Source of the DNA: a phage
Length of the DNA stretch: 39,315 bases
Sequence record: PZ445456.1
Direction: 5' to 3' (one strand)
Each line of letters starts with the position of its first letter. The first letter of the stretch is position 1. Position numbers and translations under genes: made by a program. The notes under the pieces are model-generated. The model had not been told where the DNA came from. It did no database searches and saw only the letters and a program-made list of their open reading frames with translations. Below are positions 3,219 to 21,030 of the stretch, piece by piece.

Positions 3219-3241
3219 TAATACAACTCACTATTGAGGAT
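3219..3241 (+). promoter_or_regulatory. Phage RNAP promoter, phiOL position
   Basis: TAATACAACTCACTATTGAGGAT. It carries the same CGA-to-CAA and GGG-to-(A/G)AG deviations as T7 phiOL (TAATACAACTCACTATAAGGAGA). Confidence 0.75.
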
Positions 3242-3275
3242 TGGTCTTATTAATATTCCCTTCCTTATAGGGCTA

Positions 3276-3296
3276 ACTTAAAGACCACTTAAAGAC
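3276..3296 (+). repeat. ACTTAAAGAC c ACTTAAAGAC repeat downstream of phiOL
   Basis: Two exact 10-mers separated by 1 nt, the same unit as at 2332-2351 and 3201-3210. Confidence 0.7.
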
Positions 3297-3317
3297 AACT
3301 ATTTGTCACTTTAAGTA

Positions 3318-3346
3318 TTGACTCTAAGATTAACCTATGAGACTAT
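3318..3346 (+). promoter_or_regulatory. Host sigma70 early promoter (A1 equivalent)
   Basis: TTGACT (3318-3323), a 17-nt spacer, then GACTAT (3341-3346). The surrounding GTATTGACT.TAAG..TAACCTAT.A is colinear with T7 A1 as recalled. Confidence 0.75.
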
Positions 3347-3452
3347 AGCAACCGTTGAGAGACACAACGCTACCAACTACCAGACAAGACCTAGAGTTAT
3401 CTGGTAAGGCTGAAGGGTCTCAAGTAGTCATCAACCAGACATACGAAAGTGG

Positions 3453-3481
3453 TTGACTCAACGATAGAAACAACGTAGTAT
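3453..3481 (+). promoter_or_regulatory. Host sigma70 early promoter (A2 equivalent)
   Basis: TTGACT (3453-3458), a 17-nt spacer, then TAGTAT (3476-3481). Confidence 0.7.
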
Positions 3482-3545
3482 AGCAGTCGTCAACAACTGG
3501 TCGCCCTCTGAAACAACATGAGGTGTCACGGTGGCAAACAATAGG

Positions 3546-3575
3546 TTGACAGGCAGCAACAACAAGATGTAAGAT
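3546..3575 (+). promoter_or_regulatory. Host sigma70 early promoter (A3 equivalent)
   Basis: TTGACA (3546-3551), an 18-nt spacer, then TAAGAT (3570-3575). Confidence 0.65.
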
Positions 3576-3643
3576 GTACGACATAACGTTCTTGTGAAGT
3601 CCCACACTGAAAGGGACTCGGTGCTAACAAAACTGCACTTAAA

Positions 3644-3655
3644 GCTCTTTAACAA
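3644..3655 (+). promoter_or_regulatory. boxA-like antitermination element in the early leader
   Basis: GCTCTTTAACAA matches the rrn/T7 boxA core (TGCTCTTTAACAA) in 12 of 13 positions. It lies between the A promoters and the R0.3-type hairpin. Confidence 0.55.
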
Positions 3656-3694
3656 TTTGGATAATAAGCACTCTTGAGATGATGACAACAGCGA

Positions 3695-5508: not shown

Positions 5509-5690
5509 GGGCGCAAGATTGGATGGGTGCGCACAACTGGCACAACATGTGGTTGCACAACAACATTGCAGACGTAATCAAGATTGACCAAGTGAACGGC
5601 CTTAAGTGGCAACTAGGGGACCGCCTCGCAATACAAGCGGGTCTCCCTTTGAACATCGACAAGGCACTTGACGCTCAACTGATGGGCTGA
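5505..5690 (+). CDS. gp0.7 C-terminal (host shut-off) segment as a separate 61-aa ORF in a different frame
   Basis: The C-terminus ...[12 protein letters not shown] matches the T7 gp0.7 C-terminus (..NIDKQLDAMLMG). The ATG at 5505 overlaps the upstream stop (ATGA). Confidence 0.65.
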
Positions 5691-5763
5691 TAAGGTGTAT
5701 CTTCAAGGTCGGCACTGTCTGCTGGCCTTTATAGATAAACTTTCTTAACAACGTGAGGCAACA

Positions 5764-8415
5764 ATGACTAACGTAATCAACGCACCAAAGAACGACTTCT
5801 CTGACATCGCTAACGCAATCCAGCCGTACAACATTCTGGCTGACCACTACGGTGCACAGCTTGCAGCTACACAGCTTGAGTTAGAACACGAAGCGCACAC
5901 CGAAGGCGAGAAGCGTTTCCTTAAGGCAATGGAACGTCAAATCAAAGCGGGTGAGTTCGGCGATAACGCAGTAGCTAAACCTCTCCTGTCATCCCTCGCA
6001 CCGAAGTTTATCGAGGCGTGGAACACTTGGTTCGCTGAAGTGGAAGCGAAGCGTGGCAAGCGTCCAGTGGCCTACAATCTGGTACAGAAGGTTACACCTG
6101 AAGCTGCTGCATTCATCACACTGAAGGTCACGCTGGCTTGCTTGACCAAAGAGGAATACACGAACCTTCAATCGGTCGCCACTAAGATTGGTCGCAGTAT
6201 TGAAGACGAGCTACGTTTTGGTCGCATCCGTGACGAAGAAGCGAAGCACTTTAAGAACCATGTACAAGAAGCACTCAACAAGCGCGTTGGTATCGTCTAC
6301 AAGAAAGCATTCATGCAAGCGGTTGAAGGCAAGATGTTAGACGCTGGTCAACTACAGACCAAGTGGACCACATGGACACCTGAAGAAGCAATTCACGTTG
6401 GTGTACGCATGTTGGAACTACTCATTGGTTCTACTGGTCTCGTTGAGTTACACCGCCCGTTCGCTGGGAACATCGAGAAGGATGGCGAGTACATCCAGTT
6501 AACAGAACAGTATGTAGACCTGTTATCCAAACGTGCTGGCGCACTGGCTGCAATCGCTCCGATGTATCAGCCTTGCGTGGTCCCGCCTAAGCCTTGGACT
6601 TCTCCGGTCGGCGGTGGCTATTGGGCTGCTGGTCGCAAGCCTCTCTCTCTGGTTCGCACTGGTAGCAAGAAGGGACTGGAACGTTACAACGACGTGTACA
6701 TGCCTGAAGTTTACAAGGCGGTGAACATCGCACAGAATACTCCTTGGAAGATTAACAAGAAGGTTCTGGCAGTGGTCAACGAGATTGTGAACTGGAAGCA
6801 TTGCCCGGTTGAAGATGTACCCGCTCTGGAACGTGGAGAACTTCCGGTCAAACCTGATGACATCGACACCAACGAGGCATCACTCAAAGCATGGAAGAAA
6901 GCGGCCTCCGCAATCTACCGTAAAGAGAAGGCTCGCGTGTCTCGTCGCATGAGCATGGAGTTCATGTTGGGTCAAGCCAATAAGTTCGCACAGTTTAAAG
7001 CTATCTGGTTCCCGATGAATATGGACTGGCGCGGTCGTGTGTACGCGGTCCCGATGTTCAACCCGCAAGGCAACGACATGACCAAAGGCTTGCTGACGCT
7101 CGCTAAAGGTAAACCAATCGGTGTAGATGGGTACTACTGGCTGAAGATTCACGGTGCTAACACTGCTGGCGTGGACAAGGTGGACTTTGCAGAACGCATC
7201 AAGTTCATTGATGACAACCATGAGAACATCCTGAGCGTAGCGGCTGACCCAATTGCTAACACTTGGTGGGCCGAGCAAGACTCTCCGTTCTGCTTCCTCG
7301 CGTTCTGCTTCGAGTATGCAGGTGTGCAACACCACGGGATGAACTACAACTGCTCTCTTCCGCTGGCGTTCGATGGTAGCTGCTCCGGTATTCAGCACTT
7401 CTCCGCGATGCTCCGTGATGAGGTTGGCGGTCGTGCGGTTAACCTGCTGCCGAGCAAGGAAGTACAGGACATCTACCGCATCGTTGCGGAACGTGTGAAC
7501 GAAATCCTGAACCAAGATGTTATCAACGGGACCGACAACGAAGTAGAGACCGTGACCAACAAGGACACAGGGGAAATCACTGAGAAGCTCAAGCTGGGTA
7601 CTAAAGAACTAGCTGGTCAGTGGCTGGCCTATGGTGTGACTCGCAAGGTCACTAAGCGTTCAGTCATGACATTGGCTTACGGTTCCAAAGAGTACGGCTT
7701 CCGTGACCAAGTTCTTGAGGACACCATTCAGCCAGCTATCGACGATGGCAAGGGCTTGATGTTCACTCAACCGAACCAAGCGGCTGGCTATATGGCTAAA
7801 CTGATTTGGAACGCCGTAACGGTGACTGTGGTCGCTGCGGTTGAGGCAATGAACTGGCTGAAGTCTGCTGCTAAACTGCTGGCTGCTGAGGTCAAGGACA
7901 AGAAGACCAAAGAGGTTCTGCGCAAACGCTGTGCGGTACATTGGGTAACTCCTGATGGCTTCCCTGTGTGGCAGGAATACCGTAAGGCAGTACAGACCCG
8001 CTTGAACCTGATGTTCTTAGGTCAGATTCGTTTGCAGCCTACCGTGAACACCAACAAGGATAGCGGCATTGATGCACGTAAGCAGGAGTCAGGTATCGCA
8101 CCTAACTTTGTTCACTCAATGGATGGTAGCCACCTGCGCATGACTGTGGTCCGCTCCAATGAGGTCTACGGTGTGGAATCGTTCGCACTGATTCACGACT
8201 CCTTTGGCACTATCCCTGCTGATGCTGGCAACCTGTTTAAAGCAGTGCGTGAAACTATGGTCAACACTTACGAAGAGAACGATGTACTTGCAGACTTCTA
8301 TGAGCAATTTGCTGACCAGTTGCACGAATCACAGCTTGACAAGATGCCTGAGATGCCAGCTAAAGGTTCTCTGGACCTGCAAGAAATCCTTAAGTCAGAC
8401 TTTGCGTTTGCCTAA
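5764..8415 (+). CDS. gp1: Single-subunit DNA-dependent RNA polymerase (gp1), 883 aa
   Basis: Colinear with T7 RNAP over its whole length, including DGSCSGIQHFSA, RSVMTLAYGSKE, IHDSFGT and the C-terminal FAFA. The specificity loop QPTVNTNKDSGIDARKQESGIAPNFVHS is T7-like. Confidence 0.98.
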   Translation: MTNVINAPKNDFSDIANAIQPYNILADHYGAQLAATQLELEHEAHTEGEKRFLKAMERQIKAGEFGDNAVAKPLLSSLAPKFIEAWNTWFAEVEAKRGKRPVAYNLVQKVTPEAAAFITLKVTLACLTKEEYTNLQSVATKIGRSIEDELRFGRIRDEEAKHFKNHVQEALNKRVGIVYKKAFMQAVEGKMLDAGQLQTKWTTWTPEEAIHVGVRMLELLIGSTGLVELHRPFAGNIEKDGEYIQLTEQYVDLLSKRAGALAAIAPMYQPCVVPPKPWTSPVGGGYWAAGRKPLSLVRTGSKKGLERYNDVYMPEVYKAVNIAQNTPWKINKKVLAVVNEIVNWKHCPVEDVPALERGELPVKPDDIDTNEASLKAWKKAASAIYRKEKARVSRRMSMEFMLGQANKFAQFKAIWFPMNMDWRGRVYAVPMFNPQGNDMTKGLLTLAKGKPIGVDGYYWLKIHGANTAGVDKVDFAERIKFIDDNHENILSVAADPIANTWWAEQDSPFCFLAFCFEYAGVQHHGMNYNCSLPLAFDGSCSGIQHFSAMLRDEVGGRAVNLLPSKEVQDIYRIVAERVNEILNQDVINGTDNEVETVTNKDTGEITEKLKLGTKELAGQWLAYGVTRKVTKRSVMTLAYGSKEYGFRDQVLEDTIQPAIDDGKGLMFTQPNQAAGYMAKLIWNAVTVTVVAAVEAMNWLKSAAKLLAAEVKDKKTKEVLRKRCAVHWVTPDGFPVWQEYRKAVQTRLNLMFLGQIRLQPTVNTNKDSGIDARKQESGIAPNFVHSMDGSHLRMTVVRSNEVYGVESFALIHDSFGTIPADAGNLFKAVRETMVNTYEENDVLADFYEQFADQLHESQLDKMPEMPAKGSLDLQEILKSDFAFA

Positions 8416-8422
8416 CGGAATC

Positions 8423-8445
8423 TAATACGACTCACTATTGGGAGA
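8423..8445 (+). promoter_or_regulatory. Phage RNAP promoter (phi1.1A position)
   Basis: TAATACGACTCACTATTGGGAGA, directly after the gene 1 stop. The transcript begins GGGAGACCCTTG9TTTCCCC. Confidence 0.9.
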
Positions 8446-8467
8446 CCCTTGGGGGGGGGTTTCCCCT

Positions 8468-8499
8468 ACTTTAAGATAACTTTAAGTTTTAACTTTAAG
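8468..8499 (+). repeat. AT-rich triple ACTTTAAG repeat, a candidate origin/epsilon-like leader
   Basis: ACTTTAAG occurs at 8468, 8479 and 8492. The last copy forms TTAACTTTAAGAGG, resembling the T7 TTAACTTTA translational enhancer. The region corresponds to the AT-rich primary origin zone downstream of phi1.1A in T7. Confidence 0.35.
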
Positions 8500-8512
8500 A
8501 GGAAACATAATC

Positions 8513-9070
8513 ATGTTTACTTTCATCACTTCAGTAGGCGCTCTCGTAGCAACCATTCTTGCAGCAACATACTACAACCGTTCAAAGGTATTTCTCACTA
8601 AGCTAATCAAAGAAGAGAAGAACTCTCACGCACTCAAAGAGAGACTTGAAGATGGGTGGCGAGAGAAGCAGGAACTGGCTGGTCGAATCCGTACCTTAGA
8701 GTTCGAACAACAATATGACATGTCGAACCAACGAGAACTCATTGAGCGTCTACGCGCTGAGGCAGTGGAGTACCGCAAGGAACTTAAAGAGGCAAAGAGT
8801 ATCATCCGTGAGTACACACACAGTGACATCACGTCTATCAAGTTTACTGCTCACATCCCGGATGCTGGATGGAAGCGCACTGAGTTCAAGCTAGGTATAG
8901 GGTCTTGCGGCAAAGAGGTTACGTGTTTGCACTGGAAAGAACAGTCGGACCGCTACCTGCTGACACAGACGTGCACTGATGGTGAGCGCAAAGAGTTCAC
9001 CTATTATAAGAAAGACGTAGCTGGTTGCATTGAGATTGCACGTAAGGTTGCAGACAATACGACTCACTAA
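8513..9070 (+). CDS. Hypothetical 185-aa protein: N-terminal TM helix, about 75-aa coiled coil, Cys-containing C-terminal domain
   Basis: Clean ORF with AAGAGGAAAC upstream of the ATG and an epsilon-like leader. T7 has no counterpart between gene 1 and 1.1. The last 6 codons (D N T T H stop) are encoded by the phi1.1B promoter itself. AGA/CGA/ATA/CTA codons are enriched. Confidence 0.75.
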   Translation: MFTFITSVGALVATILAATYYNRSKVFLTKLIKEEKNSHALKERLEDGWREKQELAGRIRTLEFEQQYDMSNQRELIERLRAEAVEYRKELKEAKSIIREYTHSDITSIKFTAHIPDAGWKRTEFKLGIGSCGKEVTCLHWKEQSDRYLLTQTCTDGERKEFTYYKKDVAGCIEIARKVADNTTH

Positions 9071-9077
9071 TGGGAAA
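9055..9077 (+). promoter_or_regulatory. Phage RNAP promoter (phi1.1B position)
   Basis: CAATACGACTCACTAATGGGAAA, with predicted +1 at G9072. Confidence 0.8.
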
Positions 9078-9086
9078 CACTGAAAG

Positions 9087-9128
9087 TTAAACTCAAGGTC
9101 ATCTACATGGTGGCCTTCATGATTAACT
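9087..9128 (+). promoter_or_regulatory. RNase III-type processing hairpin (R1.1 position)
   Basis: TTAAACTCAAGGTCATCTACATGGTGGCCTTCATGATTAACT. The GGTCATC/GGTGGCC stem and flanking AAACT/TGATTAACT frame match the T7 R-site architecture. Confidence 0.7.
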
Positions 9129-9159
9129 GTCAACGATACTACCAAGAGGAAATAACATT

Positions 9160-9309
9160 ATGCGTACCAACTTTGAACCAACCACTAAGCGCAACAACGT
9201 CATCAACGAACACGGTGCTGAATGGCAGGAACGTAAAGACCGCATGAAGAAACGCCACAAGACAAAGCGTGGTAACTCTGAGAAACGTAACTGGAAGGAG
9301 GCACTCTAA
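9160..9309 (+). CDS. gp1.1: gp1.1 homolog (49 aa, highly basic)
   Basis: AAGAGGAAA RBS. MRTNFEPTTKRNN...RKDRMKKRHKTKRGNSEKRNWKEAL has a size, charge and position like T7 gp1.1. Its stop overlaps the gp1.2 ATG. Confidence 0.7.
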   Translation: MRTNFEPTTKRNNVINEHGAEWQERKDRMKKRHKTKRGNSEKRNWKEAL

Positions 9310-9581
9310 TGGGTCGCTTATATAGTGGTAACTTAATAGCATACAAAGACGCTATCGAACGCCTCAAAGAAGACCACGATGTGAGTGTGGTCGTTGAGAC
9401 TTTCCGCTATGAGAACTATGCGAGGATGCGCTGGGTATCCGGTGAGACTCTTCGAGTGGTCTTACGGAATGGCTTAGTGTTAACCTCTAAGTGTTTCGAA
9501 CAGGACGATGAAGACGTTCGCTGCAATGCACAGACTGAATGGCTTCGTAAGGTACACAGTGACCTGAAGCACTGGAAGTAA
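9309..9581 (+). CDS. gp1.2: gp1.2 homolog (dGTPase inhibitor), 90 aa
   Basis: MGRLYSGNL... and the C-terminal ..DLKHWK match T7 gp1.2 (MGRLYSGNL...QLKDWK). Confidence 0.85.
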   Translation: MGRLYSGNLIAYKDAIERLKEDHDVSVVVETFRYENYARMRWVSGETLRVVLRNGLVLTSKCFEQDDEDVRCNAQTEWLRKVHSDLKHWK

Positions 9582-9601
9582 TACGACTCACTATTGCGAG
9601 A
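9579..9601 (+). promoter_or_regulatory. Phage RNAP promoter (phi1.3 position)
   Basis: TAATACGACTCACTATTGCGAGA. The TAA is the gp1.2 stop codon. Confidence 0.85.
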
Positions 9602-9602
9602 G

Positions 9603-9645
9603 GTAAACTAAAGGTCATCTTCACGGGTGGCCTTTGTGATTAACT
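9603..9645 (+). promoter_or_regulatory. RNase III-type processing hairpin (R1.3 position)
   Basis: GTAAACTAAAGGTCATCTTCACGGGTGGCCTTTGTGATTAACT belongs to the same family as 9087 and 16395. Confidence 0.7.
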
Positions 9646-9686
9646 TTGCTTAAACATTAACCAATACACACTAAAGGAGTTCCATC

Positions 9687-20955: not shown

Positions 20956-20978
20956 TAATACGACTCACTATTGAGAGG
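20956..20978 (+). promoter_or_regulatory. Phage RNAP promoter (phi6.5 position)
   Basis: TAATACGACTCACTATTGAGAGG, followed by the leader ACTTTAAGTTCTAACTTTAAGGAG. Confidence 0.85.
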
Positions 20979-21030
20979 GGTGCCTATATGATACCTACTT
21001 TAAGTTCTAACTTTAAGGAGAACATTAATT

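Follow-up and report, generated by a model that had tools for sequence, protein, structure and literature searches.

The window, that is, the whole stretch of 39,315 nucleotides of phage DNA analysed here (PZ445456.1), carries on its plus strand an open reading frame (ORF) of 185 codons plus stop (8513..9070), which is almost certainly the gene 1.05 of a Berlinvirus of the BA14 type, standing where that gene normally stands; all the features described below lie on the same strand. The standard order is gene 1 (RNAP), the promoter phi1.05, an AT-rich origin-type leader, gene 1.05, the promoter phi1.1, the R1.1 element, and gene 1.1. Specifically, the ORF lies directly after RNAP gene 1, before genes 1.1 and 1.2 and the ligase gene, and between phi1.05 and phi1.1, a layout that is also annotated in BA14, T3, and phiYeO3-12. 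The phage itself is a Berlinvirus that is 98% identical to phage nasanit in the gene 1.05 region, with a nucleotide identity of 92-98% to the Berlinviruses whose ORF between phi1.05 and phi1.1 is gene 1.05, and the encoded protein is 97-98% identical to deposited copies.

The preliminary description of this DNA had recognised no homolog of the protein, a statement that database searches overturn. The C-terminal half matches the Pfam family PF25755 (Phage_T3_1_05, “phage T3 gene 1.05 protein”) with 97 bits and E=6.2e-28 at a gathering cut-off of 27 bits, with aa 106-176 aligned to profile positions 2-72 of 73; the protein also matches PHROG 8103 (E=1.7e-60) and PHROG 6440, while a profile search of NCBIfam gave no match. 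Homologues with this domain are annotated as gene 1.05 in BA14, 285P, Kvp1, T3, and phiYeO3-12, the domain is carried by at least 623 phage genomes, and the family amounts to 168 representatives at 50% identity. Its core motif, F-K-L-G-x-G-x-C-G-K ... Q ... D-G-x-x-K-x-F-x-Y, is present in the window protein, where the residues found are F125, L127, G128, G130, C132, G133, K134, Q152, D156, G157, K160, F162, and Y164. The ORF is hence no orphan, yet the family to which it belongs is itself functionally uncharacterised: on the function of gp1.05, the literature gave only genome-annotation tables and an evolution study of T3 deleted for ligase. What does stand from the earlier account is that of a well-signalled, membrane-anchored class II gene, which is genuine and whose function is uncharacterised.

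Two phage RNAP promoters frame the gene, with cores AATACGACTCACTA at 8424 and 9056 that are 632 bp apart and the ORF filling the gap, as had been noticed before; the window contains 15 such sites, all on the plus strand, against 0.28 expected by chance. The upstream promoter (8423..8445, from -17 to +6, with +1 at the G in 8440) is equivalent to the one named phi1.05 in BA14 and aligns with T3 phi1.05 and T7 phi1.1B. As read from the sequence, the 5' end of its transcript is GGGAGA...TTTCCC (8440..8466), which may pair into a hairpin; T3 has GGGAGAC...GTCTCCC at this place, and the G run at 8451-8459 is G9 in the window and G4-G5 at the equivalent place in relatives. The AT-rich leader that follows (8466..8545, the 3' limit being approximate) has a GC content of 0.25-0.30 over 8460-8540 and includes the gene 1.05 ribosome-binding region GAGG (8499-8502). 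The three ACTTTAAG repeats reported earlier are indeed present, at 8468, 8479, and 8492, and the whole window holds 10 copies versus 1.3 expected.

This leader aligns with the rep_origin of the T3 RefSeq record (5682-5758) and with the T7 AT-rich block located after phi1.1B, and the phiYeO3-12 record has a rep_origin feature at the equivalent place. In the RefSeq records of both T3 and phiYeO3-12, the primary origin lies directly 3' of phi1.05 and overlaps the 5' end of gene 1.05. In the window, a phage RNAP promoter is thus directly followed by an AT-rich block that shares homology with annotated origins, and the ACTTTAAG-bearing leader is a putative primary origin element. Moreover, ACTT[T/A]AAG repeats follow only 4 of the 15 promoters, those at 2296, 3220, 8424, and 20957, which correspond by gene order to phiOR, phiOL, phi1.05, and phi6.5; phi1.1A/B are the primary origins of T7, and phiOR and phi6.5 are secondary origins (PMC8373140).

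The downstream promoter, phi1.1 (9055..9077, with +1 at the G in 9072), overlaps the last five codons and the stop of gene 1.05. As the preliminary description had seen, the promoter supplies the end of the gene: the final codons GAC AAT ACG ACT CAC TAA are the phi1.1 core, and the stop codon (9068-9070) occupies promoter positions -4 to -2. Beyond phi1.1 lies an R1.1-type RNase III processing hairpin (9081..9132), which aligns with the annotated T3 R1.1 and with the T7 element after phi1.1A and whose RNA fold has -18 kcal/mol and z=-3.15, although an Rfam search of 8300-9400 matched no family, this hairpin included. The next gene, 1.1 (9160..9309, 49 aa), has a ribosome-binding region nearly identical to that of gene 1.05.

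The comparison with T7 requires two corrections. The AT-rich origin had been thought to be flanked in T7 by phi1.1A and phi1.1B; the T7 sequence has an R1.1-like element between these promoters and the AT-rich block after phi1.1B, in the order phi1.1A, R1.1, phi1.1B, AT-rich block, gene 1.1, with no ORF between. The equivalence of the promoters had also been reversed, the site at 8424 corresponding to T7 phi1.1B with the AT-rich block and the site at 9056 to T7 phi1.1A with R1.1. Specifically, the T7 promoter and its CTTAAG-rich AT-rich block are homologous to window positions 8423-8545, and the T7 promoter and R1.1 hairpin to positions 9055-9132, so that with respect to T7 the window order (promoter, AT-rich block, gene 1.05, promoter, R1.1, gene 1.1) is permuted.

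Neither the earlier suggestion that a cassette landed directly against the promoter nor a displacement of the origin is supported. An overlap of this kind recurs in homologues whose stop lies inside or against a phage promoter, namely in Berlinviruses, T3/phiYeO3-12 (the T3 stop being a TAA on the promoter's 5' edge), AP10, one Klebsiella phage, and two Pseudomonas phages, and these phages differ in promoter sequence; because at least four promoter specificities show it, the overlap is ancient. A recent orphan cassette inserted in a T7-type origin would account for the lack of the ORF in T7 and phage Berlin and for rare codons that are mildly raised relative to neighbouring core genes, and is nevertheless scarcely credible: the same slot is filled by gene 1.05 in Teetrevirus, Berlinvirus, Przondovirus, Apdecimavirus, and an IMG/VR contig, the stop-promoter overlap is conserved, and the origin-type leader is kept upstream of the gene, as in T3. 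Lying in its usual slot beside the putative origin, gene 1.05 is therefore not a novel cassette that displaced it. Rather, the segment appears to have a dual use, its leader as the putative primary origin and its 3' end as a promoter.

Codon usage bears on the same point. AGA/CGA/ATA/CTA make up 8 of the 185 codons (4.3%) versus 1.8% in the genome background (p=0.019). The previously noted excess over flanking core genes is real with respect to the RNAP (0.5%) and ligase (0.3%) genes and disappears with respect to the other small ORFs of the genome (4-7%), which the gene equals; a foreign origin deduced from codon usage was rejected on this ground. The gene is nonetheless accessory in the pan-genome sense, being deletable in T3 (PMC2696425) and absent from phage Berlin and T7; of 68 Berlinvirus-level records, 40 lack it, among them those of all 31 Y. 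pestis phages. The junction in Berlin looks like a deletion between the near-identical ribosome-binding regions of genes 1.05 and 1.1. Gene 1.05 follows the RNAP gene in enterobacterial phages and one IMG/VR contig and precedes it in two Pseudomonas phages, and a short metagenomic contig shows no RNAP gene next to it; universal adjacency to the RNAP gene is not upheld. Of three single-protein queries of IMG/VR, two found no match and the third led to two loci.

The protein consists of one N-terminal transmembrane (TM) helix, a heptad-like helical stalk of about 80 residues, a beta-domain of about 72 residues, and a disordered tail. The AlphaFold2 model of the full length (mean pLDDT 88.8; 83 for the domain only) has a single helix at aa 2-102 and six strands at aa 106-177, while the promoter-encoded tail, aa 182-185, is disordered. 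The anchor (aa 1-22, 8513..8578) lacks any charged residue and has a Kyte-Doolittle hydropathy of +1.88 over aa 1-19, and the stalk (aa 23-102, 8579..8818) has a hydrophobic periodicity of 3.5 residues (p about 0.002 versus shuffles); the TM helix and the charged heptad-like region seen in the preliminary description are thus both upheld. The beta-domain (aa 106-177, 8828..9043) corresponds to the “T3 gene 1.05” domain of Pfam. T3/phiYeO3-12 gp1.05 has a homologous beta-domain, occupies the same slot between genes 1 and 1.1 with the same phi1.05 and phi1.1, and likewise overlaps phi1.1 at its 3' end; however, T3 gp1.05, at 90 aa, is essentially the beta-domain alone, with no TM helix, no stalk, and no second Cys. 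The complete TM, stalk, and beta-domain arrangement of 185 aa is shared by Berlinvirus gp1.05 (BA14, 285P, Kvp1, nasanit, and PhiV-1; 88-98% identical to the window protein). It is also found in gp5 of Klebsiella phage KP32, a “fusion protein” whose type is about 186 aa long, with about 37% identity to the window protein and an unrelated stalk sequence. The fusion with 1.05 had already been remarked by the BA14 and KP32 annotators.

The charge pattern predicts, by the positive-inside rule, an N-out/C-in topology. In all 81 TM-bearing homologues (81/81), K/R never precede the helix and are enriched behind it, and the helix begins at residues 1-7, so that no residues would be left on its extracytoplasmic side. 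With this orientation, the stalk and the beta-domain would be cytoplasmic and the helix merely an anchor. The 69 members that consist of the beta-domain only, T3 included, have no signal sequence and must therefore be cytoplasmic. The outline of one N-terminal TM helix, a long charged helix, and Cys in the C-terminal part superficially resembles that of i-spanins (Rz-type), a candidate that was rejected: the charge signature is opposite, and the gene lies between those for RNAP and gene 1.1. Unlike i-spanins, gp1.05 is predicted to be N-out/C-in, is encoded in the class II DNA-metabolism block and not in the lysis cassette, has no partner lipoprotein gene, and has anchor-less homologues.

The predicted topology also bears on the superinfection-exclusion or envelope role suggested earlier, according to which gp1.05 at the inner membrane would block the DNA entry of a second phage or alter the envelope. 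The TM helix in 81 of the 169 family representatives and the early/middle class expression from a phage promoter are compatible with such a role, which is nonetheless highly unlikely: nothing is predicted to be exposed to the periplasm, the TM forms all share the N-out/C-in signature, and the conserved part is the cytoplasmic domain. Moreover, 88 of the 169 representatives, T3 included, have no TM helix, and about 40% of the members have no anchor at all. A substitute N-terminal amphipathic helix that would bind the short T3-type forms to the membrane was rejected, the hydrophobic moment being not significant in T3 (p=0.12) and significant in only 1 of 19 short forms.

Conservation is concentrated in the beta-domain, whose mean identity is 60% versus 25% for the stalk and whose dN/dS is 0.06-0.29 at dS up to 0.8. 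Among the 169 representatives, G128, G133, Q152, and G171 are invariant, and C132, F162, G130, R172, Y164, F125, and K160 are conserved at 96% or more. Of the four Cys to which the preliminary description drew attention (132, 138, 154, and 172), all are present, but as a conserved feature the set does not stand: C132 alone is family-wide (168/169), C154 occurs at 56%, and C138 is variable. Since only C132 is conserved and the beta-domain is predicted to be cytoplasmic, a metal site or disulfide formed by the four Cys was rejected. The fourth distinguishes the window copy from the other Berlinvirus gp1.05 proteins: position 172 is Arg in 166 of 169 members (98%), and its codon (9026..9028) is CGC in nasanit, BA14, Carena, BP12A, and SWJM-03 and TGC in the window, where the C-terminal motif G-R-(I/V)-E consequently reads G-C-I-E, without the Arg. 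This R172C copy may be functionally impaired; its family membership stands.

Changes of this sort at conserved residues, which also occur in cluster P0002 (G130D plus C132R), together with the origin-like leader and the promoter borne by the segment, would suit an ORF kept mainly as spacer or regulatory DNA between origin and promoter and encoding a functionless protein. Such an explanation has very little probability in view of the dN/dS of the beta-domain and that of the stalk (0.09-0.28), and of the conservation of the domain in at least 623 phages, including the Pseudomonas phages in which the gene precedes the RNAP gene rather than following it. As for the fold, Sm/SH3-like small beta-barrels (Hfq, LSm/Gemin, the WYL domain of BrxR/DriD/CapW, and SspB) are counted among the nearest known systems, with no sequence-profile match; Sm, Hfq, and WYL gave no Pfam match for gp1.05 at E up to 1, and searches of the PDB found no relative of solved structure, the profile searches yielding chance-level matches alone. 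The net charge of the beta-domain (median +1) is not notably basic and therefore lends no support to nucleic-acid binding.

Conversely, the stalk varies in sequence at a conserved length (median 85.5 aa). It has a nucleotide identity of only 44% to Carena between flanks of 94-100%, and the N-terminal half of the gene is a recombination hotspot. The stalk allele of the window occurs in only 23 phage records, and at least three allele classes, each under purifying selection, exist within one genus. No free-standing TM and stalk module turned up, the module occurring only within gene 1.05.

This sharp swapping between phages with near-identical flanks, the multiple allele classes, and the accessory, dispensable nature of the gene are in keeping with a role in host takeover or anti-defence. 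Here, the beta-domain would sequester or inhibit a host protein or a small-molecule immune signal, the anchor would place it near membrane host factors, and the stalk alleles would diversify under host-phage conflict. Many T7 host-takeover proteins are small early/middle proteins, which gp1.05 resembles. Such a role is unlikely but a serious contender. The variable part is the stalk, whereas the domain that would do the binding changes very little among phages whose hosts range from Escherichia to Pseudomonas and Aeromonas, which argues for a partner that is itself conserved and against defence systems specific to particular strains, and the literature gave no link between anti-defence and gp1.05. 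PADLOC (PADLOC-DB) profiles matched neither the window gp1.05 nor that of T3, a result that is uninformative on this role because PADLOC models defence and not anti-defence proteins.

Genetic information comes from T3 evolved without its ligase, in which gene 1.05 was changed in both lines, by deletions (5659-6041 or 5665-6006) in one line and by F22S in the other, and both the deletion and the substitution were scored as strictly compensatory for the ligase deficiency (PMC2696425). F22S hits the conserved Phe of beta-strand 1. The deletions also cost T3 its annotated origin, together with a promoter and a portion of R1.1; their compensation could hence be regulatory, and only F22S implicates the protein itself. 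Moreover, the T3 form is short and anchor-less, and what holds for it may not hold for the form with a membrane anchor.

Taken together, gene 1.05 identity, the architecture and topology described above, a mechanism in DNA metabolism, and dual-use DNA form the best overall explanation, which is put forward tentatively, with chances somewhat below even. Its mechanistic part is doubtful when taken by itself: the beta-domain, as the functional unit of gp1.05, would bind a conserved cytoplasmic partner linked to phage DNA metabolism, be it nucleic acid or a protein of replication or nick processing, and in the long forms the stalk would set the membrane distance, keeping the partner about 12 nm from the inner membrane if it is one continuous helix. 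The contrast in identity between domain and stalk, the near-invariant polar residues C132, Q152, K160, and R172, and the low dN/dS back the beta-domain as the functional unit, and the T3 ligase results, together with the location of the gene on the putative origin, in the class II DNA-metabolism block, provide the link to DNA metabolism. The stalk swapping and the presence/absence polymorphism run contrary to this mechanism, since genes for host interaction or anti-defence show them just as typically. The activity would be dispensable in the laboratory and costly under limiting ligase; it would be useful in nature, since the gene is under purifying selection.

A bolder and rather improbable version of this mechanism makes gp1.05 a module, so far overlooked, by which T7-like phages would tie replication to the membrane or keep nicks under control. 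Its conserved cytoplasmic beta-barrel would bind nucleic acid close to the origin, or else a factor of the replisome or of ligation, a stalk conserved in length and interchangeable in sequence would keep the long forms about 12 nm off the inner membrane, and gene 1.05, the origin, and the downstream promoter would travel as one compact unit. If true, such a module would explain the relief of the T3 ligase deficiency on loss of gene 1.05.

As a discovery, the locus matters little, because public annotations already contain the named gene with both its flanking promoters, as well as where the origin lies. What is added is a structural and evolutionary description of a widespread yet uncharacterised gene of the best-studied phage group: a predicted N-out/C-in anchor, a swappable stalk of fixed length, a beta-domain without a solved relative, the invariant Cys/Gln/Lys/Arg set, a stop codon consistently in or against a promoter, and presence/absence polymorphism within one genus. 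These combined features, together with the published genetic link to loss of ligase, make gene 1.05 a tractable target for knock-out and pull-down experiments.

The ORF at 8513-9070 on the plus strand (185 aa), located correctly by the preliminary description, which recognised no homolog of its product, is gene 1.05, which is widespread in the T7 group, already known and annotated, uncharacterised in function, and present here in its usual surroundings. Specifically, Pfam PF25755 ("Enterobacteria phage T3 gene 1.05 protein") covers residues 106-176 with a score of 97 bits (cut-off 27), the protein also hits four PHROG families, all of unknown function, and a 791-bp region of the window shares 98% identity with the Berlinvirus Escherichia phage nasanit and 92-96% with four others, PhiV-1, P483, 285P, and BA14. 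In the BA14 record, the ORF is labelled gene 1.05, lies between promoters phi1.05 and phi1.1, and carries the remark "fusion protein with gene 1.05". Moreover, the window protein matches 525 phage records by tblastn (623 when a divergent short member is the query), and 168 family members, each of at most 242 aa, are retrieved when 1.84 billion representatives are searched exhaustively by profile. Matches in the viral structure library are solely uncharacterised proteins from T7-like phages of Pectobacterium, Dickeya, Klebsiella, Salmonella, Pseudomonas, Ralstonia, Aeromonas, Delftia, and Erwinia, and no paper in the literature searched gives gp1.05 a function.

The sequence observations of the preliminary description are largely correct, and what fails is the orphan insertion that displaced the origin. 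Two promoters with the core AATACGACTCACTA at 8424 and 9056 (phi1.05, 8423-8445; phi1.1, 9055-9077) flank the gene as described; the core occurs at 15 sites in the window, all 15 on the plus strand, against a chance expectation of 0.28. The three leader repeats are also present (ACTTTAAG at 8468, 8479, and 8492; 10 copies in the whole window versus 1.3 expected), and nothing else in the neighbourhood is as AT-rich as the leader (GC 0.25-0.30). Just past the phi1.05 start site, the 5' untranslated leader carries a G9 homopolymer (8451-8459), at the position of G5 in nasanit and G4 in BA14 and Carena; a 5' hairpin loop may truly vary in length there, or the run may be an artefact of sequencing a homopolymer.

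In the T3 RefSeq record, the order is phi1.05 (5642-5664), primary origin (5682-5758), gene 1.05 (5717-5989), phi1.1 (5984-6006), RNase III site R1.1 (6003-6053), and gene 1.1 (start 6082), a layout shared by phiYeO3-12 (rep_origin 5995-6136). In T7, an R1.1-like element lies 3' of phi1.1A and a CTTAAG-rich, AT-rich block 3' of phi1.1B. The counterparts of the window leader past 8424 are, by alignment, the T3 origin and the T7 block past phi1.1B, and the segment past 9056 (R1.1, 9081-9132), which folds as a stable hairpin (-18 kcal/mol, z=-3.15), aligns with T3 R1.1 and the T7 element past phi1.1A; the proposed equivalence of the two promoters to phi1.1A and phi1.1B, in that order, is therefore reversed in content. 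By the same homology, the origin is the gene 1.05 leader and is still in place, and this leader probably has origin activity. At least two ACTT[T/A]AAG repeats within 110 nt after a promoter are found at only 4 of the 15 promoters (2296, 3220, 8424, and 20957), by gene order the equivalents of phiOR, phiOL, phi1.05, and phi6.5, of which phiOR, phiOL, and phi6.5 are promoters associated with origins in T7; besides the leader, the repeat-bearing regions are 2296-2400, 3220-3330, and 20957-21030. In T7, phi1.1A/B are the primary origins, and phiOR and phi6.5 are secondary ones (PMC8373140). Origin-type AT-rich elements may be marked by this repeat. Within 9580-9680, downstream of the phi1.3-equivalent promoter at 9580, aaactaaaggtcatc...ggtggcctttgtgattaac nearly repeats the R1.1 hairpin and is presumably RNase III site R1.3. 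As to the window itself, a 586-aa ORF, taken from its size to be the putative large terminase, begins exactly at base 1 (1-1761), and the RNAP gene starts at 5764 versus 2986 in the BA14 record; it seems, therefore, that the window is a whole genome whose start has been shifted by ~2.8 kb to this ORF.

The last codons of gene 1.05 (GAC AAT ACG ACT CAC TAA) are, as had been noticed, the promoter core itself, so that the C-terminal residues (NTTH in the window protein) are dictated by promoter sequence. Over the whole segment, the DNA has a dual use, coding for the protein and also supplying a promoter and an origin-like leader. In each lineage examined, the homolog stop lies inside or directly against promoter-type sequence repeated elsewhere in the same phage: at -4 to -2 of AATACGACTCACTA in the window and other Berlinviruses, as the TAA of gtTAACCCTCACTAA in T3 and phiYeO3-12, within TAAcgactcac in AP10, and in TAAaaaccctcacc and TAAaaccctcactgaaacag in Pseudomonas phages UNO-SLW4 and PPpW-4. 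In Klebsiella phage YMR1, the gene end, TAAttaggacacactat, presumably resembles a K11-type promoter, and no repeat of it occurs within the short locus. The recurrence of the overlap across lineages rules out a recent landing of a cassette against phi1.1, and the arrangement is ancient. The reported excess of AGA/CGA/ATA/CTA codons is weak (4.3% of the ORF versus 1.8% of the genome, p=0.019), and other small ORFs here reach 4-7%.

The AlphaFold2 model of the protein (24 homologs in the input, mean pLDDT 88.8) comprises a single helix (aa 2-102), six strands (aa 106-177), and a disordered tail (aa 182-185). The N-terminal hydrophobic segment already recognised has a Kyte-Doolittle mean of +1.88 over the first 19 aa and no charged residue in aa 1-22, and the heptad-like region corresponds to a stalk (aa 23-102) with a significant hydrophobic periodicity of 3.5 residues (p ~0.002). 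Among 169 motif-bearing representatives, 70 combine a TM helix, a long helical linker, and the beta-domain, 11 have a TM helix and a short linker, 19 a long N-extension without TM helix, and 69 the beta-domain alone, including T3 (90 aa). The helix of each of the 81 TM forms starts at about residues 1-7, with a mean of 0.02 K/R before it and ~3.1 in the following 15 residues; by the positive-inside rule, the topology is therefore predicted to be N-out/C-in, with stalk and beta-domain in the cytoplasm, and the anchor-less members agree with this placement. A role in the envelope or in superinfection exclusion, for which the protein had been named a candidate, is disfavoured, because the predicted topology exposes nothing outside the membrane and many homologs lack the anchor.

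Stalk length is conserved (median 85.5 aa, IQR 75-87), and mean identity is 25% in the stalk versus 60% in the beta-domain, where G128, G133, Q152, and G171 are invariant and C132 and F162 (99%), G130 and R172 (98%), Y164 (97%), and F125 and K160 (96%) nearly so. Foldseek against the PDB gives a best E of 0.22, and PDB profile searches return chance-level matches only. In the window, codon 172 (9026-9028) is TGC (Cys) in place of the CGC (Arg) of nasanit, BA14, Carena, BP12A, and SWJM-03, the Arg of a G-R-I/V-E motif kept in 166 of 169 family members. This single C-to-T change may be a sequencing error, or it may have impaired the window copy, an outcome compatible with constraint having relaxed during propagation. 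Elsewhere, homolog cluster P0002 (42 member sequences) carries G130D and C132R in an otherwise invariant loop, and P0031 (110 aa) is an internal-deletion variant with most of the beta-domain gone; both suggest gene decay in some lineages.

Nucleotide identity between the window and phage Carena is 0.96 at the RNAP 3' end, falls to 0.56 in the TM codons and 0.44 in the stalk, and returns to 0.94 in the beta-domain, 0.99 in R1.1, 1.00 in gene 1.1, and 0.99 in gene 1.2. BP12A and SWJM-03 show the same sharp drop, so that the N-terminal half is a module open to exchange. Berlinviruses with flanking genes 90-100% identical carry three or more unrelated alleles of TM and stalk (window 8513-8812); the window allele is found in only 23 phage records, always within gene 1.05. 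The SWJM-03 allele looks chimeric, Carena/BP12A-like in its first 12 aa and last ~18 stalk residues and different in the middle. Both halves are under purifying selection (dN/dS 0.06-0.29 in the beta-domain, with dS up to 0.8, and 0.09-0.28 in the stalk within an allele class).

The gene is absent from some relatives, and its position varies. Phage Berlin (NC_008694, locus positions 100-260) lacks gene 1.05, phi1.1, and R1.1, and its phi1.05-type promoter and ACTTTAAG leader abut the ATG of gene 1.1, the outcome that recombination would give between two nearly identical ribosome-binding regions, those of genes 1.05 and 1.1. Of 68 Berlinvirus-level records, 40 have this junction, the 31 Y. pestis phages all among them; T7 likewise lacks the gene, and the paper on the Kvp1 genome describes a region around gene 1.05 in which Kvp1 and Berlin are dissimilar (PMC2579914). 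In two Pseudomonas phage genera, a 1.05-domain gene lies in the early region directly upstream of the RNAP gene (UNO-SLW4 locus 3393-3674; PPpW-4 locus 3375-3680), its stop still abutting a phage promoter; one short metagenomic contig has no RNAP adjacent to its 1.05-domain gene. Such presence/absence polymorphism and allele swapping fit a binder employed in host takeover or anti-defence, the main alternative and a rather unlikely one, to which the high conservation of the beta-domain across very different hosts is the poorer fit.

When ligase-deleted T3 was evolved on a ligase-defective host, line A gained deletions 5659-6041 or 5665-6006 and line B gained F22S in gene 1.05, both scored as strictly compensatory (PMC2696425). 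The T3 phi1.05 and phi1.1 promoters (NC_003298, 5642-6006) are 23-bp direct repeats exactly 342 bp apart, and the spontaneous deletion 5665-6006, which removes exactly these 342 bp and with them both gene 1.05 and the origin annotated there, is what recombination between the repeats would yield; with such promoters on either side, the gene is therefore easily lost. Since the deletions also take away the origin, a promoter, and a portion of R1.1, their effect is confounded; F22S, at a residue aligned with the conserved Phe of beta-strand 1 (F111 in the window protein), is free of this confounding. Gene 1.05 can therefore be dispensed with in the laboratory, and losing it is an advantage under limiting ligase. 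Its identity, architecture, purifying selection, and dispensability, and the dual use of its DNA, are shown. It is possible, as a tentative proposal, that the beta-domain attaches to a conserved partner in the cytoplasm with a link to DNA metabolism, which the stalk of the long forms would keep at a fixed distance from the membrane.
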